Source: Bdellovibrionales bacterium (GTDB taxonomy: Bacteria; Bdellovibrionota; Bdellovibrionia; Bdellovibrionales; UBA1609). Taken from it: DNA of 64,000 bases. The stretch is from assembly GCA_050249195.1 (NCBI GenBank), contig JBFWQY010000022.1:18720-82719 (forward strand), written 5' to 3'. The notes under the pieces are model-generated. The model did no database searches. It was not told where the DNA came from and worked only from the letters and a program-made list of their open reading frames with translations. The translations under genes were made by a program, and so were the position numbers. Shown piece by piece: positions 5,752-57,242 of this stretch (position 1 is the stretch's first letter; each line of letters begins with the position of its first letter).

Positions 5752-5778
5752 GAGTCGTCCCTTTACACAGGCTAGATA

Positions 5779-5794
5779 TACAAGCTCCGTGCCG
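5779..5794 (-). promoter_or_regulatory. Possible sigma-54 promoter upstream of lpxC
   Basis: Minus strand CGGCACGGAGCTTGTA versus consensus TGGCACG-N4-TTGCW; the -12 GC is GT here. Confidence 0.35.
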
Positions 5795-5925
5795 TAACAG
5801 TTGAGTGCGATTTTACTGATTCAATAGAAATAAAGTATGGGAACAACGGAGACCAGACAATTGTCCAGCATCAAGTCGATAGGTTTTTTTGGCACAAGCG
5901 TGGCGAAAATCACGCACCTCGAACT

Positions 5926-6261
5926 TTGACGTATCGCGTTAACAAGGCGACCAACGATTCTCTCGCACCCTGTGCTACACTAGGCAAAGTGTTACGTTTA
6001 TTTACGCCAATACTCCTTATCACGATCCCTTTGTTCGTCACGGCCTGTGGGACTCAAAGTCCTTATATGCTCCCGGAATCGGATACCGCCAGCACGGCTC
6101 CCGGCGAAGCCTTTACGGCTACGGGAATGCACTTTCGTAAGCCGATGCCCGACCGGCGTGAATGGAAGCCCTGGGAATTCTACTACAAACATTGCGCGAG
6201 CAGTGGCGAAGGTTCCTACTATTCCAAAACCTCTTACACTTGTAGTGGGCCTTATTACTAG
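5926..6261 (+). CDS. Small putative lipoprotein
   Basis: Hydrophobic stretch ending in lipobox-like FVTAC; WEFYYKHC...YTCSGPYY. True start may be ~5989. Confidence 0.6.
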   Translation: MTYRVNKATNDSLAPCATLGKVLRLFTPILLITIPLFVTACGTQSPYMLPESDTASTAPGEAFTATGMHFRKPMPDRREWKPWEFYYKHCASSGEGSYYSKTSYTCSGPYY

Positions 6262-6426
6262 CCCATCCCCTTATCAGCCCTCACCGCCCAGACGATTGAA
6301 ACCGCGAGGGGTCTCGTGCCCTCGCCCCCAATGGAAGCGATTGGGCCCGAAGGTCTCCACCAGAAGGTCTATAGTTGCCACACCGCGCTCCACATGCTAA
6401 TGCCGCGAATCAGTGGAGGTGAGAAG

Positions 6427-6828
6427 ATGAAAAAAGGGGTTCTGTTGATTCTGGTCGCTTTCGGGGCATGCACAGCCGGGGCCGAATTCAAAAATTTCGC
6501 CTGCCTGGGCGACCGCCTGAGTTTCTGGTTGGACGTTAAGGATGGAAGGTTGATGTTGGTCAGCGGACCCAACGCTGTAAGTTTCAGCGACATCGAGAGC
6601 GATCCTGCCCCCACTCCCATGGGACGTCAGGAGACCTGGAGCTATAAATCTCCTGCTGGGACTGAAGTGATTATTTCATCTGAAATTTGCAGCGATAATG
6701 TTACGGATAATGATTACCCATACAGCCTGACCTATGTGGTATCTGGACGTAAATGGTATGGCTGCTGCTCCCCCTGGGCTCCGCACGTGTTCTCTGATTT
6801 TCACGAGCTCGATCCCGCCGCACCCTAA
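6427..6828 (+). CDS. Exported hypothetical protein with CSD..D..YPY...GCC motif (COG3650-like)
   Basis: Signal peptide MKKGVLLILVAFGACTAGA; GGAGG RBS; ICSDNVTDNDYPYSLT..WYGCC. Confidence 0.65.
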   Translation: MKKGVLLILVAFGACTAGAEFKNFACLGDRLSFWLDVKDGRLMLVSGPNAVSFSDIESDPAPTPMGRQETWSYKSPAGTEVIISSEICSDNVTDNDYPYSLTYVVSGRKWYGCCSPWAPHVFSDFHELDPAAP

Positions 6829-6842
6829 ATTCGGGCAATTCG

Positions 6843-6869
6843 GGACCCCGCAAACCTACGCGGGGTCTC
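6843..6869. terminator. GC-rich hairpin between convergent genes
   Basis: GACCCCGC-aaacctac-GCGGGGTC inverted repeat. Confidence 0.55.
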
Positions 6870-6891
6870 CTCCTGCTGTTTTATCTCTGAT

Positions 6892-17638: not shown

Positions 17639-17645
17639 AGGTTTG

Positions 17646-20498
17646 ATGAGAGTGCGTTTAAAACCATTACTGGCATTCCTGCTTCTGTTCGCAGCGGCGG
17701 AGCAAGCTTTTGCCGCTGGCGTTTCCTTGCGCGAGCTCAACGCCAAAGATGAGGACCTGCTGCGCAAGCGGTTGCCAGGGTTGTCCAGCGGCAATCCCGA
17801 TTTGAGCACTCTCGATGAAGCCATCCGATTGCTTATGGACCAGGGGCGCTATGAGAACGTCTATGTGGATCGCAAGCAGAACGGTTCTTATGAAGTCATC
17901 GGTCGCCCATTGAGAGTCGTGGAAACGATCCAATTCGTCGGCGCCGATGAAGTCGAGGAAAGTCAGCTGCGCGACCTGCTGGAGTTCAAGATCGGCGAGC
18001 GCTTCGACCGCAAGAAGGCGGTCGCCGCCGGCGAACGAATGAAGAACTTTTACGGCGAAAGCGGCTATTTCAACACCATTATCGAGGTCAGCTTCCATAA
18101 AACAGAATCTAATAACATCAAGCTTCTATACGAAATCCAGGAGAAAGTGCCTTGCACGATTGTCTCGCTCACCTTTGCAACGGGAAACACCGACCTCAAG
18201 GCTAAACTTGATCGCCGGTTCAGCCATTTAGTGAACAAACCCCTGACCACCGAACGCGTGCGCCAGCTGATGAACGATCTCAATGAATTTTTGATCAGCA
18301 ACCGATATCTCGCGGCCGAAGTCATAGGTCCTGAGGCGAGCTACAATGAGGACAAGACGAAGTCCTTTCTGAAATTCGAGATTGAGAACCCGTACCGTTA
18401 TGAGTTTTATTTTTCCGGTTACAAGTTTGAGACTCTGACCGGCATTTACCGCGCCATGGATCTTAAGGACAAGGAACGGAAGAACGTCGAACCTCCCGGT
18501 GAAGGGGCTGAGCGCCTGCGGCGCCATTATCTGGCCGAGGGCTTCCCGCACGTGGAGGTGGAGACGAAAGTGGTCAACCCCAAGGGTACCTATCTGAACC
18601 GTGTTTACTATACGATTCACGAAGGTCCCCGTGTTAAAATTCAGAAGATTGAAGTTCAGGGACGGATCTCGCGGCGGTCTGAATACTACGAGGAATTTAT
18701 TCTTGAGAACAGCTCGAGTTTGGTGGAACGCCGGTCCTACAATCGCCAAGACCTTGAAAACGGGTTCAAGAATTTGACGACCGAGCTGCGCAATCAAGGA
18801 TTTTTGCGCGCGCGTGTGCTGTCATCACGTGTGGAATACAACGACGCCCGCGACAAAGTGACGGTCATTGTTTTGCTCGAGGAGGGACCACAAACCCAAA
18901 TCCGCGCTCTTGATTTCGAGGGCAACCGCTTCTTCTCAAGCTTTGATCTGGCACGAGTAACAGGGTTACAGACCAATACAGCGCTCCGGCTCTCCGCATT
19001 CGAGGCCAGCATCGAGAAACTCAAGCAATTTTACCGGAGTCAGGGCTTTCTTGAAATGAGGTTGCTGAACGAGGGTGAAGATCTGATTCAATACAACGAT
19101 AAGGGCACCCAAGCCCGAATCGCGTTCCGGATCTTTGAAGGTCCGCGCATCCGGGTGAATTCCATTGTCGTCGAGGGGAATAACTTTACCAAGTCTCGAG
19201 TGATTCTCAAGGAAGCCGATTTCGAGGTGGGGGAAGTGCTCACGCCTAAAAAAATCGAAGACGCGACCGCGCGCCTGAATAAACTGGGTCTGTTTTCGCG
19301 CGTGGATATCCGCACTCTCGAGGAGGGCACCAACGTTTCTGCGCGGACCCTCGTGATCTCGGTGAGCGAACGCGATCCCGGAATCTTCCGCTTCGGCGTG
19401 GGCGTCAACAACGAACGCAACCTGACGGTTCGCGGGTTCACCGGGCTCAGCCATAGCAATATTGCGGGCACCGCGCGTGCCGTAAGCGGTCGCGTCGAGG
19501 TGAAGTCCAATGTGGCCGAAATTAATTATCTCGAGCATGAAATCGCGGCCGGCTATCTTGAGCCCTTCTTATTCAATACGCGCACCCGCGGGCGCGTCAA
19601 CATCACACGCTCTGAACATGTCTTCGACTATGAAACGAAGGATGAGTACACCGCGATCACGGCGAGTAACCGGATTGACTTCTTGGCGGAGCGGGATCTC
19701 ACAACTCATACCAAGTTGACATGGAAAATATGGGGCCTCGAATCTCGGCGCGAGTTTGAACGCTACGGACGCTGTCTTCCGCCGGATCCCGAGCCGGGGC
19801 AGCCCGCCGCGGACTTCGACCCGAATCAATATTGTCCGCCCACAACGCAACAGATCGCCACCATCGGTCCAACGCTCCTTCTGGACTACAGTGACAATCC
19901 CTTTCTACCCACCCGCGGCTCCATCACCCGGCTCACCGTCGACTACTCTCACCCGGATTTTGGCAGTTCAAGTCTGATCGAATTCGTGCGGACCGAGGGG
20001 AGTTATTCCTACTACCATCGCCTGGGATCGCCCCGGCTTGTGTGGGCCAACTCAGTGCGAGGAGGCTACGTCTCCAATCTGAGCGGGCGTGAGAACAGCG
20101 GCGTTCCGACCAGTTATGCCTTCCTCTTAGGAGGCATCTATACAGTTCGAGGATTCGACCTTGCGAGTGAAAATGAACGCATTCCGAAGGAAGGCGATGA
20201 CGACTTCGTGGTCAATCGGGGCAACCAGCTTCTGATTCCCAAAGATTCTCATTATTACCTTTTCAAATCCGAACTCCGCTTTCCGATTTCAGGAGATCAC
20301 GGCGGTGTGCTCTTCTACGATGGCGGCGGCGTTCGGGTTACCGGCTTCCATTTTAAACACTCCTACCGGGACGCGGCCGGCGTCGGGTATCGCTACAATA
20401 CGCCGGTGGGACCGCTCGCGCTGGATCTCGCCTTCAAGCTTCATCCACTCCCGAACGAAAAGGAGTTCCGGCTGCACTTGTCCATTGGAACGTTTTAG
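17646..20498 (+). CDS. BamA/TamA (Omp85) family outer-membrane assembly protein with multiple POTRA domains
   Basis: Signal peptide, repeated I.F.GN / EGP..I POTRA motifs, GG..TVRGF, GVGYRYNTPVGPL, terminal Phe. Confidence 0.92.
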   Translation: MRVRLKPLLAFLLLFAAAEQAFAAGVSLRELNAKDEDLLRKRLPGLSSGNPDLSTLDEAIRLLMDQGRYENVYVDRKQNGSYEVIGRPLRVVETIQFVGADEVEESQLRDLLEFKIGERFDRKKAVAAGERMKNFYGESGYFNTIIEVSFHKTESNNIKLLYEIQEKVPCTIVSLTFATGNTDLKAKLDRRFSHLVNKPLTTERVRQLMNDLNEFLISNRYLAAEVIGPEASYNEDKTKSFLKFEIENPYRYEFYFSGYKFETLTGIYRAMDLKDKERKNVEPPGEGAERLRRHYLAEGFPHVEVETKVVNPKGTYLNRVYYTIHEGPRVKIQKIEVQGRISRRSEYYEEFILENSSSLVERRSYNRQDLENGFKNLTTELRNQGFLRARVLSSRVEYNDARDKVTVIVLLEEGPQTQIRALDFEGNRFFSSFDLARVTGLQTNTALRLSAFEASIEKLKQFYRSQGFLEMRLLNEGEDLIQYNDKGTQARIAFRIFEGPRIRVNSIVVEGNNFTKSRVILKEADFEVGEVLTPKKIEDATARLNKLGLFSRVDIRTLEEGTNVSARTLVISVSERDPGIFRFGVGVNNERNLTVRGFTGLSHSNIAGTARAVSGRVEVKSNVAEINYLEHEIAAGYLEPFLFNTRTRGRVNITRSEHVFDYETKDEYTAITASNRIDFLAERDLTTHTKLTWKIWGLESRREFERYGRCLPPDPEPGQPAADFDPNQYCPPTTQQIATIGPTLLLDYSDNPFLPTRGSITRLTVDYSHPDFGSSSLIEFVRTEGSYSYYHRLGSPRLVWANSVRGGYVSNLSGRENSGVPTSYAFLLGGIYTVRGFDLASENERIPKEGDDDFVVNRGNQLLIPKDSHYYLFKSELRFPISGDHGGVLFYDGGGVRVTGFHFKHSYRDAAGVGYRYNTPVGPLALDLAFKLHPLPNEKEFRLHLSIGTF

Positions 20499-45900: not shown

Positions 45901-47634
45901 CTAGGGAATGCAATCGCGGAGGAGCCCCTGATTGCATCGGCTGCGGTAACGCTGGCTGATGCGAGCCCAGATATTCACATCTGCGGACTGGATCTGGATA
46001 TTGCGGGGGTTTATCCCCGCCAAACTTCGCGCTGGATCCCTCCGCCCTCCCGGAAGGAAATCGGGTAGCGAAAACCCGCTATCATAGTCGGAGCCCCCAC
46101 CGCCTCCGTAGCCACTAAATCCGCTTGGTCCGCCAGGAGCCATGGTCATCCCGGCCGCCATTTGAGAGTAGCCGCCCGAGCGCTCGCCTTCAAACTCCAC
46201 TTTCTTTGCAGTCCCTGGAGGGGCGCTTCCTCCGCCGCCACCCCCACCGCCTAACGAAGCCGGTGCCGCCGCACCCGCACCGGGTATGGCACCACCACCG
46301 TTAGGCACAGTTCCCACCATCGCCGGCTGACTTTGAAACTGGGCCGTGGGTCCGGGTATTTCCTGCTGAAGGGCATCGGCGGTGTCGGCGACATTGAAAC
46401 TGCCTTCCGCCGACTGCGTGTCCAGCTGATCCGCGCCCGCCGAGGATTTATTGTACGACTCGACTTTGGTGGTGGCCGCCGGGGCACAGAATTCGAGATT
46501 GGGATTGGTCTGACACGTCTCCACCAATTCCGCAGGCAGAGGATAGGTTGGTTCCTCAGGTTCCGCCTGGCCCGTCAAAGCTTGGATCAGGCTGGGCGCC
46601 AGCATCGCCGCCACGCCGAGAAGCTGAGTCGCATCGAATCCGGATTGGGGCTGCGGGGGCGTCGTCCCACCTGGGGGCCGCGCTCCCGTTTCGGCGCCCG
46701 TGGCGCCCGTACCTGAACCGCCCGCCGCGGTCCGGGGGTCTCCCGGCTTACCCGCACCCGCGTTTTGCGGCTGGGTGCTACCAGCAGCGCCACTGGCCCC
46801 CGAGCAGCTCATGGCCTGACGAATGGCCTCCAACTCCGCGGCGACTCCGCGCGCGGAGGGGACCGGATGAAGATTCGCGCACCGGCTGACGATTTCCTTA
46901 AGTGGCTTGAGTTTTTCTTCGGCAACAGACCTGTCACAACTCGAGTTTCCGTTCGAGGCGCACAGATCCAGAATCTTCTGTGCGTACTGGCCGCATTGGA
47001 CGCGACAAATCTCCGCCCTCGCGACACACGCTCCGCCCTGCCCCGCCTGCACCTGCGCTCCGAGGTTATGCACCAGCTCCGACTGTTTACAGGCACCGTA
47101 GGTGGTTGCCTGTACCGGCTTCCCGGCGCCTGCGTTGGGACTCGCGTTGGTGTTGGCTGTCGCATTCAGTTCCCGACGCGTGGAGACCGCTTTCGTCGCA
47201 CCCTGAGAGAGAGCGCAGCCCGCCTCCCAACCATTTTCCTGCGTGCAACAAAGATTCGCTTTATCATGATGGTTCTGTTTGCAAAAGTTCAATGCCGACG
47301 TAATGACCGCGTCCAAGTTCTGCGTTGTTACAGGTCCACTGGGCAATGAAAAAGTCTGCGGGTTTCCGGTCGAAAGCCCATCGCACCCGGCTCGCACGCC
47401 CGACTCGCTACAAAAGACAGTTTTGGCCTCATTGCAAAGCAGGCCCCGAGCGCCCTCCGCAAGGCCCACCACACGCTCCTGACAAAAATCAATGATTTGT
47501 TGCGCGTTTTGATAGCGGTCAGGGGCGGCCGCGATGGCGCCTTGAGAGGTGAAAGCGGAGGTGAGAACTGTGGCAAGAGCACAGATTGTAAACAGGAGAC
47601 CGGTAACGAAAACCTGCATTTTTTTATTGTACAC
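45901..47634 (-). CDS. Secreted Cys/Gly-rich protein (paralog C)
   Basis: Signal peptide, Cys-rich N-terminal half, hydrophobic LLGVAAMLAPSLIQAL, C-terminus NIWARISQRYRSRCNQGLLRDC. Confidence 0.82.
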   Translation of the reverse strand: MYNKKMQVFVTGLLFTICALATVLTSAFTSQGAIAAAPDRYQNAQQIIDFCQERVVGLAEGARGLLCNEAKTVFCSESGVRAGCDGLSTGNPQTFSLPSGPVTTQNLDAVITSALNFCKQNHHDKANLCCTQENGWEAGCALSQGATKAVSTRRELNATANTNASPNAGAGKPVQATTYGACKQSELVHNLGAQVQAGQGGACVARAEICRVQCGQYAQKILDLCASNGNSSCDRSVAEEKLKPLKEIVSRCANLHPVPSARGVAAELEAIRQAMSCSGASGAAGSTQPQNAGAGKPGDPRTAAGGSGTGATGAETGARPPGGTTPPQPQSGFDATQLLGVAAMLAPSLIQALTGQAEPEEPTYPLPAELVETCQTNPNLEFCAPAATTKVESYNKSSAGADQLDTQSAEGSFNVADTADALQQEIPGPTAQFQSQPAMVGTVPNGGGAIPGAGAAAPASLGGGGGGGGSAPPGTAKKVEFEGERSGGYSQMAAGMTMAPGGPSGFSGYGGGGGSDYDSGFSLPDFLPGGRRDPARSLAGINPRNIQIQSADVNIWARISQRYRSRCNQGLLRDCIP

Positions 47635-47672: not shown

Positions 47673-47687
47673 GTATCATTCCGAGAC
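47673..47687. promoter_or_regulatory. Imperfect GTATCA-TTC-CGAGAC palindrome upstream of paralog C
   Basis: 10 of 12 arm positions match GTCTCA-N3-TGAGAC; ~40 bp before the start; overlaps the upstream stop codon. Confidence 0.35.
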
Positions 47688-49100
47688 GTTCGGCCACGGC
47701 GGACAGTAGCCACGGGGTAAAGTGCTGAAGCGGGGGTAGTTTTCCCAGTACCGCGCCTCGAACTCTTCAATCAGGTCTGGTCGGGCAGCCGCTAGGTTCC
47801 GTCGTTCCTCCGGGTCCTTTTCCAAATCAAAAAGGAATCGCTCCCCATCCGCCACGCGCACGAAATACTTGTATTTGTTTTGATACCGGAGACCCCGGAC
47901 CGTGTTCGCGCAATCACGAGCGATGACATAATCGTCATGCAGTTCCTTCAGATCCTTTTTCAGGTCATCCAAATGTGCCGTTCGACGCAAGATCCGCCCA
48001 AGAAGCCGAGCCACAACGCCGTGGTGGATGGATTCGTTCACCACGATGCGCTCCCCGACCCGACCCGGAATTCGAATTGCCATCGGAACGCGAAGCTCCT
48101 GATCATAAACGGACTGTCCATGGGTCAACAGGCCGTGATCCATATGAGCCTCGCCATGATCTCCAACAAAAACCACGATTGTGTTGCGCTGCAAGTTCTT
48201 GTTGCCATAGAGGTTCAACATCGGCCCGAGAAGACGATCCAAATAGCGGGCGTTTCCACGATAGACCTTTTTGAAGAGCTCAAGATCTTGCTTGAACGAG
48301 GGACTGGATTCCCAGTCTTTTAGCAGCTCGGCGTTGGTCACCAGACCGGAGACCTTCACGCGATCGGCGGGCGAAGGACGAGGAATCCACTTCTTGACCT
48401 TGGGATGGGTCAATGCAATGTTCGGATTCAGGGTCAGCATCATCAAAAGAGGCAGCTTTTCGGGATAGCGTTCGGGATGAGTTGTGTATTCCCGCACCAG
48501 TTCCCTTTCATCCGCGTTCAAATAAAAGTCCCATTCGGAATCCGGATTAAACACATCAATCAATGGAAAATGCATGTACTTCAGATGGGCGGCTATAAAG
48601 AACGGGCGCGGGTCAGGATAGGTGATCATCTCCCTGGTGAGGTCATAATAATACCTGTACTGTTTTTCGAAGAGGGAATTGATAAAAAACTTTTCCTCGG
48701 GCTTGATCACGCTGCGGCGGAGTGGGATCCGAGTTGTGAAAAAATCCGCTGGCCAAATATTCAGCGGGCGGTAGCCGAGCTCCACCAATTCCTTGCCACG
48801 AATCGCAGCTGGAATAAAATCTTGAAGATTCGTCCACGGCGTGGGATTGAACGCATTCTGAAACACGTATGTGCTGTCTTTGAAAAACCGCTCAAGGTTG
48901 GGCAGGACGATCTCGCCCTCAAGTCCATACTGCTTGAGAAGACGCGTTTGAAGGCTGCACGTGGACACCACAAGCACGGCCGGCACCTTTGGAATCTCGC
49001 CGGCGCGATGGCGCAGAAACCACTTCACAAGGTAATAGTACACGGCCAGATTGAATCCAATGAGAAGGACGATAAGGAGGAGTCTGCGCCTGGAATTCAT
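47676..49100 (-). CDS. Membrane-anchored sulfatase-like (alkaline phosphatase superfamily) protein
   Basis: N-terminal TM, PFFIAAHLKYMHFP, YLDRLLG, GDHGE, HG..VY..ELRVPM, LFDLEKDPEE..NL. Confidence 0.88.
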   Translation of the reverse strand: MNSRRRLLLIVLLIGFNLAVYYYLVKWFLRHRAGEIPKVPAVLVVSTCSLQTRLLKQYGLEGEIVLPNLERFFKDSTYVFQNAFNPTPWTNLQDFIPAAIRGKELVELGYRPLNIWPADFFTTRIPLRRSVIKPEEKFFINSLFEKQYRYYYDLTREMITYPDPRPFFIAAHLKYMHFPLIDVFNPDSEWDFYLNADERELVREYTTHPERYPEKLPLLMMLTLNPNIALTHPKVKKWIPRPSPADRVKVSGLVTNAELLKDWESSPSFKQDLELFKKVYRGNARYLDRLLGPMLNLYGNKNLQRNTIVVFVGDHGEAHMDHGLLTHGQSVYDQELRVPMAIRIPGRVGERIVVNESIHHGVVARLLGRILRRTAHLDDLKKDLKELHDDYVIARDCANTVRGLRYQNKYKYFVRVADGERFLFDLEKDPEERRNLAAARPDLIEEFEARYWENYPRFSTLPRGYCPPWPNVSE

Positions 49101-49744
49101 TTCAGCGGAGACGGATCCACGATAAACAAGTCCTGAGCCAAATCACTTAACTCCTGAGCCACTTTCTGGAACTCCGAAGGCGTGCGGGCGGATGCTTTCT
49201 TAAAGACACGCGCTTCAATCACCATCGATGAAGGTGGATGGTAAAAATTCATGTAACTTGCCCAATACGCCACCTGATCCTTTGAGCAGGCACCGAATAA
49301 GCGGCGCGAGTTCGCACCCGCGACAAATCCCTCGACGTCAACGCCACCCTCTTTCACCTGAAAAGCCCGCGGCAGCAGCTGCTCGGAGCACTGAACCAAG
49401 CTCGTCACCTGACCTTCGTACGGATTCGTACGCGGTTTATACAAGGCGGCAACGTTCGTGCGTTCGATTGCCGCCATCTGCAAGGCCGTACGGCGCTCCG
49501 AAAAGCGAGTGCCTTTGATTGTGGCGCTGTACGTGTCGTTAGAAATATTCCAGGTGAAGCCACGGGACGTTTGGTGTTGAGGCGAGGTCGTGTCGGCTTT
49601 GAATCCCGTTTCCGGATTCAGCCTTAATCCCGGAATTGTGAATTCGGTGGCATGGGCCACGGAGAGTGAGATGAGGAGCATTCCGACGCCAAACAAACGA
49701 CTCAATGTCTGCATCTTTAAACGATAGCGAAAGATCTGGACCAC
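49097..49744 (-). CDS. Exported hypothetical protein
   Basis: Signal peptide ending AHA; NPYEGQVT...C and FGAC; 4-nt overlap with the sulfatase-like gene. Confidence 0.75.
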   Translation of the reverse strand: MVQIFRYRLKMQTLSRLFGVGMLLISLSVAHATEFTIPGLRLNPETGFKADTTSPQHQTSRGFTWNISNDTYSATIKGTRFSERRTALQMAAIERTNVAALYKPRTNPYEGQVTSLVQCSEQLLPRAFQVKEGGVDVEGFVAGANSRRLFGACSKDQVAYWASYMNFYHPPSSMVIEARVFKKASARTPSEFQKVAQELSDLAQDLFIVDPSPLK

Positions 49745-49764
49745 GTCTACATTTGAGGCCTTAT

Positions 49765-50466
49765 CTAGCGCGCGCGATCTCGCCCGCGCCCGCGCCGGCG
49801 CTCGCCACTACCACCGCCACTACCACCGCCACCGCTGCCATTGCCGATCTCGTTGCCGCTGCCTCCGCTCTCACTGCTTCCACCACCACCACCGCGGCGG
49901 CCGCCGCCGCCGAAGTTCTCGTGGATTCGATTCTCTCCGCCGCCTTTTTTGGATCTGCGGCGGCTGCGTCCCGAGCCCGATTCCGACGAAGAATCTGAGT
50001 CGGTCTCCATGATTCGGCCGTCAATCAAAAGAGGGAGTCCGGCGGCCGCACGTTCGGCAAGGCGACTCTGCAATTTAGGGCTGCTTCGGATCTTACAACA
50101 AAGATGAATCGCGGACTTCACGGATGAGGCTCTCCAGTCGGGATCCTCGTAAGGATTTTTCTTAAATCGACCGCCCTCAAGAGCCTGCATCTGCCGGTCC
50201 AGATCGAGACTGCGGCGCTCAAACTCGGCCAACACTCTTTTGACCCGGACCGTAAACGGAAAGAGCTTCCCTTCGAGCGCTTCCACTCGGCTCGGTAACC
50301 CTTCCTTAAGCGCTTTTGAATATTCGGATACGGGCTCCGACGAGCCCATGCGGTCCCGGATATACTGAGTTAATGCGGCTTGTTCTCCGTTCTGAGCAGC
50401 CCAGAGCGGCAGGCAGGAAATCAGCGGCACAATACATAAGATCTTAGCGGGACTTCTCACCGCCAC
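49765..50466 (-). CDS. Exported hypothetical protein with Gly/Ser/Arg-rich tail
   Basis: Signal peptide, helical core, then ~75 aa of G/S/R low complexity. Confidence 0.65.
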   Translation of the reverse strand: MAVRSPAKILCIVPLISCLPLWAAQNGEQAALTQYIRDRMGSSEPVSEYSKALKEGLPSRVEALEGKLFPFTVRVKRVLAEFERRSLDLDRQMQALEGGRFKKNPYEDPDWRASSVKSAIHLCCKIRSSPKLQSRLAERAAAGLPLLIDGRIMETDSDSSSESGSGRSRRRSKKGGGENRIHENFGGGGRRGGGGGSSESGGSGNEIGNGSGGGGSGGGSGERRRGRGRDRAR

Positions 50467-50941
50467 CTTTCGCGCCCTTCGAACCCTGTTCGCGTTTTAC
50501 TGAATCCCCCTGAGATTGCGGAGAACGCGGGGATTGAATGGTCACACCCGAACAGATGGCGGCCATATCACTGCGCAGGCGATTGACTTCCACCTGGCGT
50601 GTCGTTTCTAAAATTCGGAGTTGCTCCTGATACTGGCTGCCGGTGGCAGCTTCCACGCGCTGCCGTTTGGCCTCAATTTCGTCAGTCAACTGGCGGAATC
50701 GCTTGGTATCATTCAGCTGACCCTCCAGAGCCGCCACGCGACTGACAAGCTTGGGCATTTCACCGCACATGGCTTTCGCTTCCGCGGTGGTCTGTTGATC
50801 CACGTAGGTCTTAACTTCCGGAGATAAAGGGAGCGGGTTACACATGCTCGAACTCACACCTGGAATAAACCGCATGGACAGGTAAACCGAAACCGCGGTC
50901 AGGAGAACAACAAGTGAAACTTCAAGAGCGCCAATTCGCAA
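50444..50941 (-). CDS. Membrane-anchored coiled-coil hypothetical protein
   Basis: N-terminal TM, coiled coil bounded by Cys residues; GAGG RBS; overlaps the next gene. Confidence 0.7.
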   Translation of the reverse strand: MRIGALEVSLVVLLTAVSVYLSMRFIPGVSSSMCNPLPLSPEVKTYVDQQTTAEAKAMCGEMPKLVSRVAALEGQLNDTKRFRQLTDEIEAKRQRVEAATGSQYQEQLRILETTRQVEVNRLRSDMAAICSGVTIQSPRSPQSQGDSVKREQGSKGAKGGGEKSR

Positions 50942-51018
50942 GATCGATACCCTCGCGAGGTGAAGGATTCTTTTTCTATGCTGTCAAACGCGCGCCGCGA
51001 GCGCAACTCGACCTGGTC

Positions 51019-51852
51019 TTAGTTTCCAGGGTCCGTGCCGGGGCCGGGGCCACCCGGTCCGGGGCCAGGACCTGGACCGGGGCCTGGACCGGGGCCTGGT
51101 CCTGGTCCGGGGCCAGGACCTGTAAATCGGGGACAAACTTGGCCACAGACGCAAATCGGAACCCCGTTATTAGTGAAGCCTTGGACGAAGTACCGATGAC
51201 TGCAGCTGGCATGCAGCAACGTCGGACAGGGAGCACCAGACGAATTGCAATTCATACCCTTGATGGAGAGATGGACGGGTGGACAATCGTTGACCACGCC
51301 CCCTCCTACCGGTTTACCCACCGTCACCGGAATCACTCGCGGAGCAATATCACCTCCGAACACAAAATCGCCGGAGGGATTCGTGAAACTGATCACCAAC
51401 TCAGAGGCGACCGCATGATAATCGGCCCCACCAAACTTATAATTCGTGATGGCTCCACCGGCCGCGGGCCTGAGCCGCATCGAGGAAATTTGCAAGCTCG
51501 GATTGATTAAGGCACCCACCTCAATTGCGATGACCCCACCAGGTTTGACGATTTGAAAGACATCGACACCAGCCGCGGCGGGGGACATGGGATTCCCATC
51601 CCATGGCCAGACCACATGGGACCCACCGGCAAAAAACGCGGAACTGCAGATGAACCGGTCCGAAAGCAGGCTTGCCGCAAGCTCACGAATACGGTCAGCG
51701 TCTGCAGCCACGGATCCATGTCGAAGCATGCCGGTAATCGTAGTGGATAAAGTGGCGACCATAGCAATTACAACGCCCAATATGGCAACCGCAACGAGAA
51801 CACCAACCAGCGAGACTCCGTGCACTGAATTGAGTAGCCGCGAAGTTTTCAT
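51019..51852 (-). CDS. Prepilin-type protein B with Cys-rich domain and (GP)11 tail
   Basis: MKTSRLLNSVHG|VSLVGVLVAVAILGVV class III-like leader; start overlaps the upstream TGA. Confidence 0.85.
   Translation of the reverse strand: MKTSRLLNSVHGVSLVGVLVAVAILGVVIAMVATLSTTITGMLRHGSVAADADRIRELAASLLSDRFICSSAFFAGGSHVVWPWDGNPMSPAAAGVDVFQIVKPGGVIAIEVGALINPSLQISSMRLRPAAGGAITNYKFGGADYHAVASELVISFTNPSGDFVFGGDIAPRVIPVTVGKPVGGGVVNDCPPVHLSIKGMNCNSSGAPCPTLLHASCSHRYFVQGFTNNGVPICVCGQVCPRFTGPGPGPGPGPGPGPGPGPGPGPGGPGPGTDPGN
51022..51120 (-). repeat. GGN-CCN hexamer repeat encoding (GP)11-GGPGPGTDPGN
   Basis: Read directly from the sequence. Confidence 0.95.
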
Positions 51853-52721
51853 CAGTTCCCCGGATCTGTTCCTGGTCCAGGTCCTCCTGGTCCTGGGCCC
51901 GGCCCTGGTCCAGGCCCCGGTCCTGGTCCCGGGCCTGGCCCTGGTCCCGGACCTGCTACCGGGGCACACACTCTCACGCAATCACATTGCGGAACCCCAT
52001 TCGCATCAAACCCCGGCATAAAATACATCGCCTCACAGTCCACCGGCATACCCAAGCAGGGATCTGGACTTGGCTGATTGTAAGTTGAGGCATCACAAAT
52101 AAAACTTCTCATCGTCGTGTTGACCGTGTGGCACATGACAATCTGGCTACCCGCATTGGGATTGGTAATGATCGTCACAGGCACAATGCGGTCTTTAAAT
52201 GCTTCACCGCCCGCGGCGTGCAATTGAGAGGGCGATGCGCCTCCCGGAGTATCGGTCGGCCCAAACAAAAGGCGAACCTGAGCCGTCCATACGTCTCGGT
52301 TACCAGGATCTCCGGGAACAGGACCCACATTCAGGGGAGTCGGAGTATTGAGGTCCGCGCCCGACGTCGCCCTTGCTGGCTCTAAGACAATTCTTTGCAA
52401 CCAGGAGGTGGGCCCTAGCTGCGTCGGAGCACTCACCGCGACTATCCCATTCACTCTCAAATTCGCAATCGCCGTCGGAGTGCCCGTGTATGTCGCTCCC
52501 CCCCAGGCATTTCGACAGATCTCCTGATTGCCCATGATTCCCTGAACGAGACGATGAATTGTATCCACATCCGTGGTCATCGTGGAGCGCTTTACCACGC
52601 TCGTCATATTGTCGAAAATTGTAGCAAGGATGGCCGCGACCACACCCATAATGGCGATCGCCACAAGCATGCTGATCAGACTGATGCCTCGTGTGGAGCG
52701 GAGCGGCCTTGTGACTGACAT
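51852..52721 (-). CDS. Prepilin-type protein A with Cys-rich domain and (GP)11 tail
   Basis: MSVTRPLRSTRG|ISLISMLVAIAIMGVV; GAGGTG RBS before ATG 52721. Confidence 0.85.
   Translation of the reverse strand: MSVTRPLRSTRGISLISMLVAIAIMGVVAAILATIFDNMTSVVKRSTMTTDVDTIHRLVQGIMGNQEICRNAWGGATYTGTPTAIANLRVNGIVAVSAPTQLGPTSWLQRIVLEPARATSGADLNTPTPLNVGPVPGDPGNRDVWTAQVRLLFGPTDTPGGASPSQLHAAGGEAFKDRIVPVTIITNPNAGSQIVMCHTVNTTMRSFICDASTYNQPSPDPCLGMPVDCEAMYFMPGFDANGVPQCDCVRVCAPVAGPGPGPGPGPGPGPGPGPGPGPGGPGPGTDPGN
51855..51953 (-). repeat. GGN-CCN hexamer repeat encoding (GP)11-GGPGPGTDPGN
   Basis: Read directly from the sequence. Confidence 0.95.
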
Positions 52722-52804
52722 GCGCGGACTCACCTCTATGATCATCAGTATTATGATCACTATGATGTAGATAGATTTAAGTGTAGGAGGTTTCCATTTT
52801 CGAG

Positions 52805-54901
52805 TCAGTACTTTTGTTCAGGTGAACCACTTTCGAACACTTCTGCTAGAGCCTCGGCATCGGGTTTGTACGGCGGGGAAACTCCCAAAATCTTCATAAC
52901 CGTAGGATATTGCTCAAGGTGAGAGATCGGTCGAGACAAGCGATGTCCCTTTTTGATTCCTGGACCCATCACCATAAATGGTGTCCATAGACCTTGTTCC
53001 CGATCGGTGAGAATCGCCTGTTTGTATCCGGACTTGAGGGACTCGGCAAACACCTCCAAGTCCTCAGTCACATCCTCGATCCAGCCATAACCGACCTCGT
53101 TGGCGATTACAAGATCGCCTACGCGCTCCCTCGGCAATCCCCATTGCGATGATTCCTCGCGAGTGTGAAGGGCCGCCAGAGGGGAAAGGCCTTGTGCGTC
53201 GCGCAGCTCGCGGAGAGTTGAAATCACCTCCTCACGCAGGCGCTCATAGGCCGGACCGGAAGCCGGTTGATAATCTCCGGCAAGCCCATTCGGGTGGAGA
53301 TAGACGTGATTCATTTTCAAAAAAATCACCTTGGTATGAGCCCAATCGATCCTCGGAATGCCCGTTTCCGGATCCTTCTTGAATCGCAGCCACCCCTTGC
53401 GCGCAAAAAGATTGTTTAGGCGCACTTCATAATTCAGTGGCACGGCGCCATGGTCCGAACTCAAGACCACGTAGGCATTGTCTGCCCGCGCCTGCAAAGC
53501 CGAGCCGATAAGATCATCGATATGTCGGTAGATGGAGAACACCTCCGCTAAGAGCGCCTCGCGCTCGCTGTCCTCAGTGCGCGCGTACTGACGCCCGCGC
53601 GGATCGATCGCGCCCAGCCACCATCGACTGGTCAGCATTTGATTGGGCGAATAGACCGAGTGGATAAAGACATCCTGCGAAGCTTCATTGATAAAGTAGG
53701 CCTGGGCACGCTTGTGCCAATCAAATGACATCTCAAATTCATCCAGAAAGGCCTCTTTGTCTTCCGGAAAATAAATCAGCTGAGGTGGGTAATTGTCGAC
53801 AAAGTCCACCATCGGACCCGCCGCCTGATGCAGCTGATCACTGATCTCGTGCGGCACAGCCACGGTCTCATTCAAACCATCATAGAGCACGCGCAATCGG
53901 AACGAGCCGGGTTCTCCGAGCTGGATCACTTTCACTCGCGCCTGGGTGGGAAACTTCAAGACGGAAAGATCCTGCTCAAGCTTCAAGCGCTGGGGCAAGG
54001 CCTCCTGGTAATGGCGCTGAACACGATAAGACAAGGTGATGGGAAACCAGTCACTCCATTCTCCAACCCTCAGTTGAGCCAGAGTTTTATCCTTATCCAG
54101 CGAGACGGTGGCGGTGTCGTATTGAGCCAGCCCGTCATCCATGCTATCGCTGAGAAGAACCCATAGGTCGGCGTCCCAGTTGCGCAAATTGATCTCGTAA
54201 AGGGGACCATAAGACGTCGGAGGTCGGGCGCGCCAGCCGGAGGCAGGTTCAGCCTTGATGAATTCAGTCAGCTTCTTCTCAATCTGAAAGACGCGGTCAT
54301 TCCACCCCAGAACATGGCGGAACTCGACATCTTCATGAGCATGAAAAATCATATTTGGAAATTCAACGCCCCATCCTCCCCACCGCCCCTTGACCACATT
54401 GCCGCGCGTGATCTCTGGAGGGGTAGAGCCCGGCACGGAGAGTAAGCTCACCACCCAGCCCGCCTGTTCCAAAGTATACCAAAACGGATCCAACGATTTT
54501 GCAATGGAGCTAAATCCTGAGCGGGGGACAATGGAAAGTGGATATCCGGGAATTCGGATTGGACCATCCGCAACACCATGACGCTGAGGGAGTGTGCCCG
54601 TGAACAGCGTTGCGAAGTTCACGGGCGTGTGACTGGGAAACACGGGAATGGAATAGCCATAGCTTCCCTCATCCATCATCCGCTTAATATTGGGGAGCTT
54701 GCCTTCCTCCGCCCATCTATACATGTTGAAGAGTCCGGGATCCGCGCGAAGACCGTCAGGAACCAACCAGTATAAGCGCCACGGACGCCGCGACGCCGCG
54801 GATTGCCAACTCCGCCGTTTTGCGAGCACAATAAGACCAAGACAAAAAACCAAGAGCCCTGTAACAAGAACTGCCACGCGCTTGAACTGAAGGGATTTCA
54901 T
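52805..54901 (-). CDS. Membrane-anchored nucleotide pyrophosphatase/phosphodiesterase-like (alkaline phosphatase superfamily) protein
   Basis: N-terminal TM, PDGLR, FPSHTPVNFATLFTG...HGV, SSDHGA, FMVMGPGIK, PTV. Confidence 0.9.
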   Translation of the reverse strand: MKSLQFKRVAVLVTGLLVFCLGLIVLAKRRSWQSAASRRPWRLYWLVPDGLRADPGLFNMYRWAEEGKLPNIKRMMDEGSYGYSIPVFPSHTPVNFATLFTGTLPQRHGVADGPIRIPGYPLSIVPRSGFSSIAKSLDPFWYTLEQAGWVVSLLSVPGSTPPEITRGNVVKGRWGGWGVEFPNMIFHAHEDVEFRHVLGWNDRVFQIEKKLTEFIKAEPASGWRARPPTSYGPLYEINLRNWDADLWVLLSDSMDDGLAQYDTATVSLDKDKTLAQLRVGEWSDWFPITLSYRVQRHYQEALPQRLKLEQDLSVLKFPTQARVKVIQLGEPGSFRLRVLYDGLNETVAVPHEISDQLHQAAGPMVDFVDNYPPQLIYFPEDKEAFLDEFEMSFDWHKRAQAYFINEASQDVFIHSVYSPNQMLTSRWWLGAIDPRGRQYARTEDSEREALLAEVFSIYRHIDDLIGSALQARADNAYVVLSSDHGAVPLNYEVRLNNLFARKGWLRFKKDPETGIPRIDWAHTKVIFLKMNHVYLHPNGLAGDYQPASGPAYERLREEVISTLRELRDAQGLSPLAALHTREESSQWGLPRERVGDLVIANEVGYGWIEDVTEDLEVFAESLKSGYKQAILTDREQGLWTPFMVMGPGIKKGHRLSRPISHLEQYPTVMKILGVSPPYKPDAEALAEVFESGSPEQKY

Positions 54902-55836
54902 TGCTTAAACTCTTCTCCGCTCCCATAGTTGTCGGAATCGCACTGGGACTGCTTTTCCCCTATCAATCGCTCTCTCTTATTTGGGTGAGTTCCATTCTGC
55001 TCTTTCTACTTTTGTTTCTCAACACGCTTTCCGTGGACTCACGAAAAATATTTGCGGTTTCGCGGAACCAAGCCTGGCAATCGCTGACCGCGCAAGTTCT
55101 CATATTTTTCATCTTTCCGGTCATTCAAACCGGAGCCGCCGCAGCCATCCTGCATGATCCTGATTTCGTGTTCGGAGTGGCCGTAAGCAGCCTGGCGCCT
55201 GCCGCGCTCGTAAATCCCTTTTTCGCTCACGTGCGCGGTGGCGACCGGGCGCTGGCTCTGCTGAACGTGATCCTGTCGACCGTGTTAAGTCCGCTGCTCA
55301 CCGTTCCCCTGCTGTTCGCTCTCGGCTTGGGCGCGGTTTTTATCAACTCCCGTTTCTTGTTCGTCTACCTTATAGGCCTGACGGCTCTGCCCGTGCTGTT
55401 GAGCTTTGGAGTCACGACGCTCTGGCCTGGCGCCGGCGCCCGAATCCAGCGGATTCTTCCCGCCGCAAATTCGCTGATTCTCGCGGCGCTGATGTTCATT
55501 CTGGTCGGATCCTCTCTCAACCGCGTACCCGTGCGCCTCTTACTCAAAGGAGATTTTCCGAATTTGCTTCTTCTTTTTGTTGGTATCGATTTCGGAATCT
55601 TTATCGCCGTTCGTGCGGCTGCAAAGCTCTTTCTGCCCATTCCGGGCGCGGAAACTTTGGCGCTAAGCGTGGCCACGCGGAACTTCGCCGTGAGCGCCAG
55701 CTTGATGCTGCTCTTCCATCCTAAGGCGGCGCTTCCCTCAGCTGCAGGGCTGATCATTCACTGTTTGTTTTTTCAATGGCTTGTATGGCGGGGCGCCCGA
55801 TCTCGATCCGCTTCCGCCGAGGAGTGTGCAATGTGA
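54901..55836 (+). CDS. Bile acid:sodium symporter (BASS)-family transporter
   Basis: About 9-10 TM segments, APAA...GGD.ALAL...STVLSPLLTVP, TRNFA; GAAGGGA RBS before TTG. Confidence 0.85.
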   Translation: MLKLFSAPIVVGIALGLLFPYQSLSLIWVSSILLFLLLFLNTLSVDSRKIFAVSRNQAWQSLTAQVLIFFIFPVIQTGAAAAILHDPDFVFGVAVSSLAPAALVNPFFAHVRGGDRALALLNVILSTVLSPLLTVPLLFALGLGAVFINSRFLFVYLIGLTALPVLLSFGVTTLWPGAGARIQRILPAANSLILAALMFILVGSSLNRVPVRLLLKGDFPNLLLLFVGIDFGIFIAVRAAAKLFLPIPGAETLALSVATRNFAVSASLMLLFHPKAALPSAAGLIIHCLFFQWLVWRGARSRSASAEECAM

Positions 55837-57242
55837 CCAAGCCGGCATTACGCCATCCCGTTCGCGTGCTGATCGTTCTTCTGGTGACGACTCTTTCAAT
55901 TGGGCTCGTGGGCTTGGCCATTCGCTTTCAGCCTGAGATCCGTTGGACCTGGAGATATTTGCGCTCAGCTCCGCTCCCCCATTCGCCGCTGCCTTCGCCG
56001 CCGCCCGCGTGCGACGGCTGCAGTTTGATCTTGATTGCCCTCGACACTCTGCGCGCTGACACCCTGATTCACATGCCCCGCCTGCGGGCGATCGCCGCTG
56101 AGTCCATGCTCTTCACCCATGCGTACACACCCGCGTTCTACACGACACCGAGTCATATGAGCGTCTTCACATCGCTTTACCCCGACCAGCATCGTGTGAT
56201 GGGCGCCGGCATCAAAATCCCGCGGAACCCGCGCACTCCTTATAAAGCGTATCGTTTAAGTGCCAAGATCAAGACCCTTGCGGAGATCTTACGGGACCGG
56301 GGCTATCGCACGGCATGGTATGGCCCCATGCGCCTCAAACATCTGGATTTTGAGCTGGGATTCGCCCGCGGGTTTGAGCACATAAGGCCGAGTCCCTTTA
56401 CGAGGCCTCTTTGGAATGGTGAAATCGCGCCCCGATTTCAAGCTGACCACATTCCTCCTCCGCAAGCGCGGGAATTCCTGTTCATTCATTCCTATATCAC
56501 GCATTTGCCATATGTGCTCCCCGATGCCAAAGAGGGCCCATTCGCGCGCGACGAGTTGTGGGCCCGCCTTCAAGAGCGGCGGAGACAAGCCCACGAGCGC
56601 GACGCGGACTCCGATTCCATCCTCCATGCACTTGGACAAGATCAACTTCGCCAGTTTTCCAAAATGCCCGGACATTCGGCGCAAGAGCCCTTACGTCGAG
56701 CTTACGTCCATTCTGTTTCCGTTCTGGATTCCCAGATTGGGGAGCTGTGGGCAAAGTTAAAGGACCAGGGGCGGCTGCAAAACACGGTCGTGGCCTTCTT
56801 TGCGGATCATGGCGAAGAGCTTTTGGAGCATGGCCAGGGCAGCCACTCCAGTTTCTATGAGCACACGTCCCACGTCCCGCTCATCATTTATCATCCGCGC
56901 CTCCGCCGAGGGCTCACGTACGACAATCTCATCAGCCTGATCGACCTTATGCCAACCCTGCTGGCGTTGCTGGGAGTTCCCGTCCCGCCGCAAGCGCGCG
57001 GTCTCAACGTGTTCACGCGAAGCCGTGCTTATGTCTTCGGCTCCACGTTAGGAAATGAATTCATCTCGGATGGCGCCTGGAAATTGCTCCGGACTCACGC
57101 GGGGCGCGAACGCCTCTTTTATCTTCCCCTTGATCCGTTGGAGAAGCACAACCTCAGGCCCTACCAGACATTATGGACAAGGGACGCCTTGGCGCGGTTG
57201 CGCCGGGAACAGAGACGGTGGGAACTCGAACAAGCGCTCTGA
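55833..57242 (+). CDS. Membrane-anchored sulfatase-like protein
   Basis: IALDTLRAD, AYTPAFYTTPSHMSVFTSLYP, ADHGE, HVPLII, IDLMPTLL, DPLEKHNL; GTG start after GAGGAG. Confidence 0.9.
   Translation: MTKPALRHPVRVLIVLLVTTLSIGLVGLAIRFQPEIRWTWRYLRSAPLPHSPLPSPPPACDGCSLILIALDTLRADTLIHMPRLRAIAAESMLFTHAYTPAFYTTPSHMSVFTSLYPDQHRVMGAGIKIPRNPRTPYKAYRLSAKIKTLAEILRDRGYRTAWYGPMRLKHLDFELGFARGFEHIRPSPFTRPLWNGEIAPRFQADHIPPPQAREFLFIHSYITHLPYVLPDAKEGPFARDELWARLQERRRQAHERDADSDSILHALGQDQLRQFSKMPGHSAQEPLRRAYVHSVSVLDSQIGELWAKLKDQGRLQNTVVAFFADHGEELLEHGQGSHSSFYEHTSHVPLIIYHPRLRRGLTYDNLISLIDLMPTLLALLGVPVPPQARGLNVFTRSRAYVFGSTLGNEFISDGAWKLLRTHAGRERLFYLPLDPLEKHNLRPYQTLWTRDALARLRREQRRWELEQAL

Follow-up and report, generated by a model that had tools for sequence, protein, structure and literature searches.

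In predatory bacteria, pili mediate contact with the prey, and post-translational modification of pilins is, to our knowledge, known from a few pathogens, in which it is carried out by glycosyltransferases or by multi-span phospho-form transferases. The TfpO/PilO and TfpW proteins of Pseudomonas and Acinetobacter are membrane enzymes that are encoded beside pilA and modify the pilin in the periplasm, TfpO acting on its C-terminal residue. Members of the Ept/Ppt family have a multi-helix membrane domain and BcsG has a multi-span membrane anchor; we know of no report of pptA being adjacent to a pilin gene. GspK and PilX, large minor (pseudo)pilins that lack Glu5 and have a class III leader, are thought to be located at the fibre tip. 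Here, we describe a locus of a Bdellovibrionales bacterium in which two genes for type IV pilin-like proteins (pilins A and B) lie among genes for anchored enzymes of the sulfatase and NPP folds. It is contained in a 64-kb stretch of DNA (positions 18720–82719 of contig JBFWQY010000022.1, here C22 of genome G000), the whole of which is referred to as the window. In a group of uncultured Bdellovibrio-like bacteria, the constant linkage of such pilin genes to a sulfatase-fold enzyme and its small partner suggests that pilus proteins may be processed or decorated in a manner not described before.

Two phospho-form transferases bear on the comparison. PptA of Neisseria, an alkaline-phosphatase-superfamily enzyme with a periplasmic sulfatase-fold domain, puts phosphoethanolamine or phosphocholine on the type IV pilin, according to the passages that deal with it in PMC4010543 and PMC10525099. 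For BcsG, section 4.3 of PMC10525099 describes a zinc ion bound by a Cys and a Glu-His pair and a Ser nucleophile ∼ 35 residues past the Cys. A search of the literature exclusive of supplements returned no description of pilins linked to sulfatase or NPP genes in Bdellovibrionota.

Gene organization of the locus

Judged from its gene content and from its counterparts in related genomes, the locus is made up of two nested units, a conserved envelope module and the twin pilin genes, which in the window are inserted between NPP698 and unk165. The module comprises three anchored enzymes of the alkaline phosphatase superfamily that face the periplasm, a transporter and four low-complexity proteins that are secreted or anchored. 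The genes are as follows (window coordinates; the Pfam cut-offs are 23 bits for PF01663, 25 for PF00884, 24.3 for PF01758 and 21.2 for the N_methyl motif, PF07963):

unk577, 45901–47634, minus strand: secreted protein, rich in Cys and with long stretches of mainly Gly, Pro and Ala, encoded at the end of the NPP module; no Pfam or NCBIfam family
sulfA, 47676–49100, minus strand: single-pass anchored sulfatase-fold (alkaline-phosphatase-superfamily) protein; PF00884, 44.6 bits
unk215, 49097–49744, minus strand: small secreted protein with two Cys; no family match
unk233, 49765–50466, minus strand: exported protein with a coiled coil and a tail rich in Gly, Ser and Arg; no match in Pfam or NCBIfam
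unk165, 50444–50941, minus strand: N-terminally anchored coiled-coil protein; only sub-threshold Pfam matches
pilin B, 51019–51852, minus strand: type IV pilin-like protein; N_methyl, 19.2 bits (22.8 in the six-frame genome search)
pilin A, 51852–52721, minus strand: type IV pilin-like protein; N_methyl, 21.4 bits (24.9 in the six-frame genome search)
NPP698, 52805–54901, minus strand: protein of the NPP-type phosphodiesterase/pyrophosphatase fold with a large insertion, first gene of the minus-strand run; PF01663, 89.2 bits
BASS-family transporter, 54901–55836, plus strand: PF01758, 28.6 bits
sulfB, 55776–57242, plus strand: sulfatase-fold enzyme; PF00884, 119.7 bits

The measured spacing of the minus-strand genes is 83 nt from NPP698 to pilin A, −1 nt from pilin A to pilin B, 77 nt from pilin B to unk165, −23 nt from unk165 to unk233, 20 nt from unk233 to unk215 and −4 nt from unk215 to sulfA, so that there are three overlaps (1 nt for pilA/pilB, 23 nt for unk165/unk233 and 4 nt for unk215/sulfA). 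The first and the last of these indicate coupling at the level of the operon. The open reading frame (ORF) of pilin A has an alternative upstream limit at 52760, and that of pilin B extends to 51981, its likely start being the ATG at 51852; for unk215, a shorter frame, 49097–49714, is also given. An earlier note on this DNA had placed nine of these genes at the above positions and had considered several of them to be translationally coupled; the ORF listing and family scans bear out the former and the three overlapping pairs the latter, and unk577, downstream of sulfA, had been left out.

At 54899–54903, the divergent NPP698 and BASS ORFs have one start-codon base in common, which leaves no intergenic promoter region between the genes. 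The identical 1-nt overlap is present in a relative (G005, locus L016), and the N-termini of both proteins are conserved from residue 1.

Linkage of pilin genes to unk215 and sulfA

The module, in which BASS (with or without sulfB) is divergent from NPP-unk165-unk233-unk215-sulfA-unk577, was found in full or shortened form between the genes for an M1 aminopeptidase and a helicase in nine genomes of the genus (genomes, contigs and fetched loci carry G, C and L numbers; ORFs of the fetched loci were called mechanically, by first start codon and greedy selection, and their boundaries are approximate). Pilin genes directly follow NPP in four of the nine (the genome of the window, G005, G011 and G007; in G011 the site is split over two contigs) and are missing from this site in the other five (G002, G006, G008, G014 and G016). 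The presence of the module without pilins in five genomes means that unk165, unk233, unk577, sulfB, BASS and NPP exist independently of the pilins. The proposal that NPP, BASS and sulfB are dedicated to the pilins therefore falls, and unk165 and unk233, likewise attributed to the pilin system, belong with unk577 to the NPP module.

The constant neighbour of the pilins across the genus is the unk215–sulfA pair, not NPP or BASS. The five genomes without pilins at the module site have a second unk215–sulfA pair elsewhere, adjoined by tailed pilins at a succinate dehydrogenase site in G002, G008 and G014 and on contig C12 in G016; in G006, contig C158 ends at sulfA, so that pilins beyond the contig end would be unseen. 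There is also a third, paralogous cluster type, with one to three pilin genes followed by a sulfA gene of clade III (G005:C25, G008:C11, G002:C776 and G006:C110). An unk215-family gene lies 1–3 kb away in the last three of these; the G005 contig stops ∼ 0.3 kb past the pilin gene and no unk215 is seen there.

A search of 18 genomes of the genus returned 28 strong pilin matches (E ≤ 1.4e-20), 21 of which are no more than 5 kb, the limit used for linkage, from a full-length sulfA-family gene. Three more adjoin NPP on contigs too short to reach sulfA (two on G011:C221 and one on G007:C158). Strong pilin matches and full-length sulfA matches occur in the same nine of the 18 genomes, both being absent from the other nine. 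Of the 31 full-length sulfA-family matches, about 12 have a pilin gene within 5 kb, and the rest belong to clades that have either NPP or none of the two as a neighbour. When 26 sulfA proteins are placed in a maximum-likelihood tree, pilin-linked members make up one clade (100/100, four of four) and three of the four members of another (100/99, the fourth lying at a contig end), and the proteins of the window and G005 form a further pilin-linked group, giving at least three separate groups in all; an NPP-only clade (99/98, none of four with pilins) and others fall between them. The linkage of pilins to sulfA has survived relocation, inversion and divergence of paralogues, whereas that to NPP and BASS has not. 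Loss of linkage between pilin and enzyme genes in relatives, a prospect that the earlier note had raised against its own proposal, is not what was found: the linkage holds for sulfA and unk215.

Outside the genus, a single pilin-like ORF was found (L029); it overlaps an NPP gene where the latter begins, and the taxonomy of its contig is doubtful. We rejected this locus (G339, labelled candidate division WWE3) as an independent 'WWE3/CPR' lineage: its genome is 5.1 Mb, compared with 1.7–4.3 Mb for its database relatives, so that either the label or the bin seems to be wrong.

Two further arrangements involve members of the pilin family. At L017 (G007:C41, 7703–12203) and L058 (G014:C59, 6155–11092), two Cys-rich family members flank a protein with the HTTM domain (PF05090, a vitamin-K-dependent carboxylase-like domain) and a protein of ∼ 470–500 aa, so that the same arrangement, a second pairing of pilins with a membrane enzyme, is seen in two genomes. 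In one genome, the cluster of three pilin genes, unk215 and sulfA on G016:C12 (L018) is flanked by PMT_2 genes of the GT-C, ArnT/protein-mannosyltransferase-like type (5704–7131 and 16541–18007).

The unk215 domain family

The unk215 domain spans ∼ 190 aa, is exported and contains the motifs NPYxG...C and GANxRxxFGxC, with Y99, C109, G141 and C143 invariant in the family alignment (A1). It had no Pfam, NCBIfam or meaningful PDB sequence match and only unnamed clusters in the Atlas. An exhaustive profile search returned 1105 cluster representatives at E ≤ 1e-3, 790 of them at E ≤ 1e-10; the word-indexed search was too insensitive, with two matches for the single sequence and six for the profile. 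In five of the ten long members scanned (P0074, P0090, P0091, P0109 and P0063), the domain is fused to PF00884, in either order, which, as classic gene-fusion evidence, indicates that unk215 works with a sulfatase-fold protein. As separate genes, unk215 and sulfA adjoin each other in 17 of 26 sulfA loci.

The NPP query fetched 11 loci, one of which is a weak partial match and was excluded from the unk215 count. An unk215-family ORF lies within 3.3 kb in nine of the other ten, the tenth being a contig of 2.2 kb. These loci include long contigs of metagenome-assembled genomes (MAGs) labelled as DPANN archaea (genomes of 1.1–1.4 Mb) and of a MAG labelled as Rokubacteria. Across the phylum, the unk215 profile matches 16 of 301 genomes; ten of the 20 loci around these matches, a set ascertained through unk215, have a gene of the NPP698 family and several have a sulfatase-fold gene. 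At L026 (9929–16507, on a 203-kb contig of a Nanoarchaeota-labelled MAG), L028, L030 and L032, an NPP698-family gene and an unk215-family gene stand with one or two sulfatase-fold genes that encode an N-terminal CPxCN motif, the NPP of this DPANN module being 41–48% identical to the bacterial one; in L026, the NPP-unk215-sulfatase-sulfatase run is situated within a cluster of GT2, GT8, GT4 and ABC-2 exporter genes.

Pilin-like proteins A and B

Pilins A and B are paralogues with 29% identity (E 1e-17). Both have class III signal peptides, that is, basic leaders ending in Gly and followed by a hydrophobic helix (...STRG before ISLISMLVAIAIMGVV and ...SVHG before VSLVGVLVAVAILGVV). The leader of pilin A is MSVTRPLRSTRG, followed by ISLIS, and that of pilin B is MKTSRLLNSVHG, followed by VSLVG, so that mature position +5 is Ser and Gly, respectively, and Glu in neither. 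For N_methyl, pilin A is above and pilin B below the cut-off in the protein scan and both are above it in the six-frame genome search; neither matched T2SSK or any other family of minor pilins in Pfam. The Atlas clusters nearest to pilin A are hypothetical proteins of Bdellovibrionota, partly with N_methyl. A related-locus search of genome contigs with pilin A gave 223 pattern matches, none of them confirmed.

When 18 members of the family, taken from eight genomes, are aligned (A3), Gly-1 is invariant (18/18), as are seven Cys residues, and Glu is found at +5 in only two members, although the clade-III paralogues mostly have Glu5. The C-terminal motif C..YF..GFD..G.P.C.C...C is followed by a Pro/Gly-rich tail in most members, and among the 17 sequences that are complete, the last residue is Asn in 10. 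Among the tail-bearing pilins, the C-terminal residue is Asn in all ten from group-I clusters and Tyr in all seven from clade-III clusters, whose tails are short and Pro-rich; these are two lineage-level observations rather than 17 independent ones.

Pilins A and B of the window have a Cys-rich C-terminal domain and an identical tail of 33 residues, with GP repeats running to TDPGN (DNA at 51852–51953 for pilin A and 51019–51120 for pilin B). Of the 33 sense codons of the tail, 27 differ between the two genes, all synonymously, and third positions match in only 7 of 34 codons. Such synonymous divergence behind identical peptides argues for selection on the peptide and not for recent gene conversion.

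sulfA

The PF00884 match of sulfA covers only positions 117–279 of the hidden Markov model, in the C-terminal half, and the N-terminal half is too diverged for a Pfam or PDB sequence match. In a profile alignment with PDB entry 4uph, Cys48 falls on the Asp of 'isaDQwr', a metal ligand in that structure, so that Cys48-Ser49 takes the place of Asp-Gln. Residues C48, S49, W89, H177, D314, H315 and H327 are invariant in all 26 sulfA-family members. Position 90 is Thr or Ser in 21 of the 26, and Trp89-Thr90 is, by spacing and alignment, the candidate nucleophile site; every pilin-linked member retains Trp-Thr at 89–90. The five exceptions at position 90 are four NPP-linked group-II members and a paralogue on C25 of the same genome as the window; Ser is found at 91 in four of them. 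A Thr nucleophile, which the earlier note had cited as a feature of known transferases, is found, aligned to known positions, in NPP698 and sulfB; for sulfA it is a candidate only, by the residues just given.

By these residues, sulfA cannot be counted among the sulfatases: where type I sulfatases have an Asp as first metal ligand, it has an invariant Cys, and the sequence NxxxW-T has no Pro/Arg signature of the CxPxR/SxPxR type. Since CxPxR/SxPxR is also missing from sulfB, 'sulfatase-like' refers to the fold only. All NCBIfam matches of sulfA are far below the cut-offs, and NPP698 and sulfB reach none either; matches to the MCR, EptA and LtaS models score 14–24 bits, compared with cut-offs of 660–1250. 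In a 19-residue Kyte–Doolittle scan, sulfA, sulfB and NPP698 each have a single hydrophobic segment ahead of the catalytic domain (residues 7–25 in sulfA and 9–27 in NPP698), with no Pfam match to EptA_B_N or a comparable domain, in agreement with the single N-terminal anchor that the earlier note had assigned to each of them.

The paralogue on G000:C25 (L059, 1081–7134) is found, together with an NMT1/phosphonate-binding-type solute-binding protein, among three flagellin genes, and its match in the genome search has one in-frame TAG. A flagellin link as a general theme of sulfA was considered and rejected, a flagellin neighbour being present in only one of seven related loci (G011:C409).

Other genes of the envelope module

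NPP698 is an NPP/type I phosphodiesterase by its residues: in an alignment of 18 members (A4), D49 and T92 are invariant, and Thr92 is aligned with the nucleophile Thr segment of the Xanthomonas NPP (2gsn) and of 7n1s. Only positions 66–160 align well with solved NPPs; the protein, 698 aa in length, has a large central insertion, and a PDB sequence search with the single sequence returned no relative. Its relatives at 41–48% identity come from DPANN archaeal and other MAGs. sulfB has an intact first-ligand Asp (LDTLRAD) and TTPSH, with Thr where sulfatases have Cys or Ser ('yttpsh' aligned to 'vagpsr' of PDB entry 4upi), and a second hydrophobic segment at 385–403. Orthologues with 43–46% identity follow BASS in L063, L064 and L067.

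The transporter has nine hydrophobic segments and a PF01758 match covering 155 of 191 model positions, as in members of the BASS/SBF family. The divergent NPP and BASS pair is conserved in the genus and is also found, at 25–27% identity, in L041, L046 and L047 from other Bdellovibrionota. Homologues of unk165, which has a hydrophobic segment at 3–21, adjoin NPP in L016, L063, L064, L067 and L069, and those of unk233 lie between NPP and unk215 in the same five loci, the last four of which have no pilins. Homologues of unk577, which has one N-terminal hydrophobic segment, are located directly downstream of sulfA in L016, L023, L062, L064 and L067.

In five loci, the neighbours of the pilin/sulfA cluster include a gene for an NMT1/THI5-like (phosphonate-binding-type) solute-binding protein, which no ABC permease or ATPase gene adjoins; in L016 (G005), it occupies the position of sulfB. 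The sites are:

L016, 14321–15397: NMT1-like solute-binding protein
L018, 4670–5728: NMT1-like solute-binding protein
L021, 11657–12748: NMT1-like solute-binding protein
L022, 2046–3194: NMT1-like solute-binding protein
L059, 5146–6135: NMT1-like solute-binding protein

The window and its genome

The window belongs to a genome of 4.9 Mb in 68 contigs with 97% completeness, whose close relatives in public records carry the labels Bdellovibrionales or Pseudobdellovibrionaceae MAG. This DNA is present in three DNA sequencing runs, all from one landfill-metagenome study. The remaining genes of the window are housekeeping genes, such as those for LpxC, RuvABC, EF-P, TamB, a BamA-like protein and Lon. 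Family scans found no pilus-assembly genes within the 64-kb window; two Peptidase_A24 (prepilin peptidase) matches and T2SSF-family (PilC/GspF) homologues are located on other contigs of the genome, and a six-frame search of the genome gave 17 ORFs with the N_methyl motif. It follows that the locus does not itself build a pilus, as had been supposed, and nothing points to the transporter supplying a donor group, another part of that proposal. Scans for structural RNAs gave no Rfam and no tRNA matches, and those for promoters and terminators were uninformative (nine promoter-like sites, compared with 5.7 expected).

At the start of the window (2–640, plus strand, beginning upstream at G000:C22:18406–18807) there is a 395-aa ORF with the N_methyl prepilin motif (29 bits). 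It lies ∼ 1.4 kb upstream of an ORF with a ComEC-like 'Competence' domain (2042–2932).

Possible roles of the unk215–sulfA pair

We tentatively favour the reading that unk215 and sulfA form a two-part periplasmic enzyme that acts directly on the pilin-like proteins. Signal-anchor topology predicts that the catalytic domains and the globular domains of the pilins lie on the periplasmic side of the inner membrane. Prepilins and the unk215–sulfA pair would then stand side by side in this membrane with their globular parts in the periplasm, sulfA as the catalytic sulfatase-fold subunit and unk215 as an accessory domain bound to it. The pair would modify or mature the pilin-like proteins, probably by transferring or cleaving a phosphoester in or close to the Pro/Gly-rich C-terminal tail, and machinery encoded elsewhere would process the prepilins into a fibre or a fibre tip. 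Given the candidate Thr/Ser nucleophile and a ligand pattern like that of BcsG, transfer or cleavage of a phosphoester would be more likely than hydrolysis of a sulfate ester. A bolder version, which we regard as unlikely in its entirety, would make unk215–sulfA a new two-component, single-pass transferase of phospho-form or related ester groups that decorates or trims pilin tails, with the terminal Asn or Tyr as a recognition code read by the respective enzyme clade; this might provide interchangeable, chemically tuned pilus tips, and the substrates in DPANN archaea and elsewhere might be other surface polymers.

Several observations weigh against direct action on pilins. Four of the 28 strong pilin matches are in a different type of locus, beside HTTM-domain genes. 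Apart from the pilin-like ORF of L029, the linkage is confined to one subclade of one genus, and because only related genomes are involved, shared ancestry inflates the linkage counts, which do not represent independent events. Pairings of unk215 with sulfatase-fold or NPP genes are widespread in the absence of pilins, in other families of Bdellovibrionota, in DPANN archaea and in the Rokubacteria MAG, so that pilins cannot be the general substrate of the pair. In sulfA, the first metal ligand is altered, position 90 is hydrophobic in five of 26 members, and there is no lipid-facing multi-helix domain like that of known phospho-form transferases. As for the tails, a terminal Asn has no hydroxyl acceptor, and the orthologous twin pilins of other genomes have non-identical tails, unlike those of the window.

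Pilins and enzymes might also take part in a shared process without direct chemistry between them, which we consider possible but doubtful: the enzymes would remodel the envelope of their own cell or scavenge periplasmic phosphodiesters, BASS and a binding protein would move the product, and the pilins would be co-regulated adhesins or tip subunits, for example in prey contact. Such a role would suit the canonical hydrolase-type site of NPP698, the retention of the NPP and BASS pair without pilins in five genomes of the genus and at three further loci of Bdellovibrionota, the recurrence of the NMT1/phosphonate-binding-type protein in L016, L018, L021, L022 and L059, and the DPANN modules of NPP, unk215 and sulfatase-fold genes, of which that in L026, with its glycosyltransferase/ABC-2 setting, suggests work on a surface glycopolymer. 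Co-regulation, however, poorly explains why each type of pilin cluster has kept its own unk215–sulfA pair after duplication and relocation, with one pair beside NPP and a second beside the pilins in G016, G002, G008 and G014 (and in G006 as far as its contigs show), and enzymes anchored in the inner membrane of the producer would have prey surfaces out of their reach.

The replacement of the first metal-ligand Asp by Cys in 26 of 26 members, the strong divergence of the N-terminal half and the hydrophobic residue at position 90 in five members would be expected if unk215–sulfA were instead a pseudo-enzyme, a non-catalytic binding module serving the tailed pilins as chaperone, docking site or anchor (for instance by retaining them in the membrane or tethering their tail), with the lineage-specific Asn or Tyr ends of the tails as recognition handles. 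We regard this as rather improbable: D314, H315, H327, H177, C48 and S49 are invariant among paralogues that are ∼ 30–45% identical, which is typical of a working metal site, the pilin-linked members have all kept Trp-Thr, and a Cys ligand is catalytic in BcsG as described in section 4.3 of PMC10525099. Still less probable, and in our opinion very unlikely, is inherited synteny without function, whereby the pilin genes landed beside the enzyme genes once, in the ancestor of the subclade, and stayed there. All strongly linked cases do come from nine related genomes of one genus, and other Bdellovibrionota loci with NPP and unk215 have no pilin neighbour (only one of the 20 loci has one, and this locus belongs to the same genus). 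Yet the linkage persists through changes of chromosomal site, gene order and orientation and spans sulfA clades separated by long branches, the linkage to NPP and BASS was lost or never gained in five of the nine genomes, and the pilA/pilB and unk215/sulfA overlaps speak for coupling at the operon level.

Comparison with known systems

If the link between unk215–sulfA and the pilins is biochemical, it would represent a new route of pilin maturation, suggest a function for a domain family of roughly a thousand 50%-identity clusters and offer a handle on the module of NPP, unk215 and sulfatase-fold genes that is common to Bdellovibrionota and the genome-reduced DPANN archaea. Even without a pilin substrate, the pairing of unk215 with a sulfatase-fold protein, backed by fusions, is a concrete hypothesis of a two-subunit enzyme. 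In these relatives of predatory bacteria, a distinctive pilin family is genetically locked to an enzyme architecture different from those known to modify pilins, in which a sulfatase-fold protein has a single membrane pass and Cys as a metal ligand and is joined by a previously unannotated partner domain.

The locus resembles the PptA system in combining a periplasm-facing sulfatase-fold enzyme with a type IV pilin. PptA, however, is a class XI phosphoethanolamine transferase, and in contrast to the Ept/Ppt proteins, sulfA, sulfB and NPP698 each have one N-terminal helix, and the first ligand of sulfA is Cys. Having no multi-helix domain and no family-level score, these proteins are not members of the Ept, PptA or LtaS families, though they may work like them. 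A further difference from PptA is that adjacency to the pilin genes is here the main evidence for the proposed role. With BcsG, sulfA has a residue pattern in common (invariant C48, T/S90 and D314-H315), with no homology apparent beyond the superfamily and no Pfam or PDB sequence match between the two; this pattern gives the residue set of sulfA a catalytic precedent among phospho-form transferases, as far as the cited section on BcsG goes. Unlike BcsG, sulfA has no multi-span anchor, and the substrate of BcsG is a polysaccharide. NPP698 is similar to the Xanthomonas NPP and ENPP proteins in its PF01663 match, Thr nucleophile segment and DGxRxD first-ligand motif and differs from them in its large central insertion, membrane anchor and unk215-family neighbour.

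Among systems defined by adjacency to pilin genes, TfpO and TfpW have glycosyltransferase/oligosaccharyltransferase folds rather than that of the alkaline phosphatase superfamily, with neither an unk215-like partner nor a Pro/Gly-rich tail on the pilin. Pilins A and B differ from GspK and PilX in their C-terminal Cys motif and tail, and their clade-III paralogues mostly have Glu5. The nearest known kind of system is a pilin gene accompanied by its own modifying enzyme on the periplasmic side, as for PptA, TfpO and TfpW, and the locus would belong there provided that the proposed function holds; the hitherto unannotated family of accessory domains is a solid by-product.

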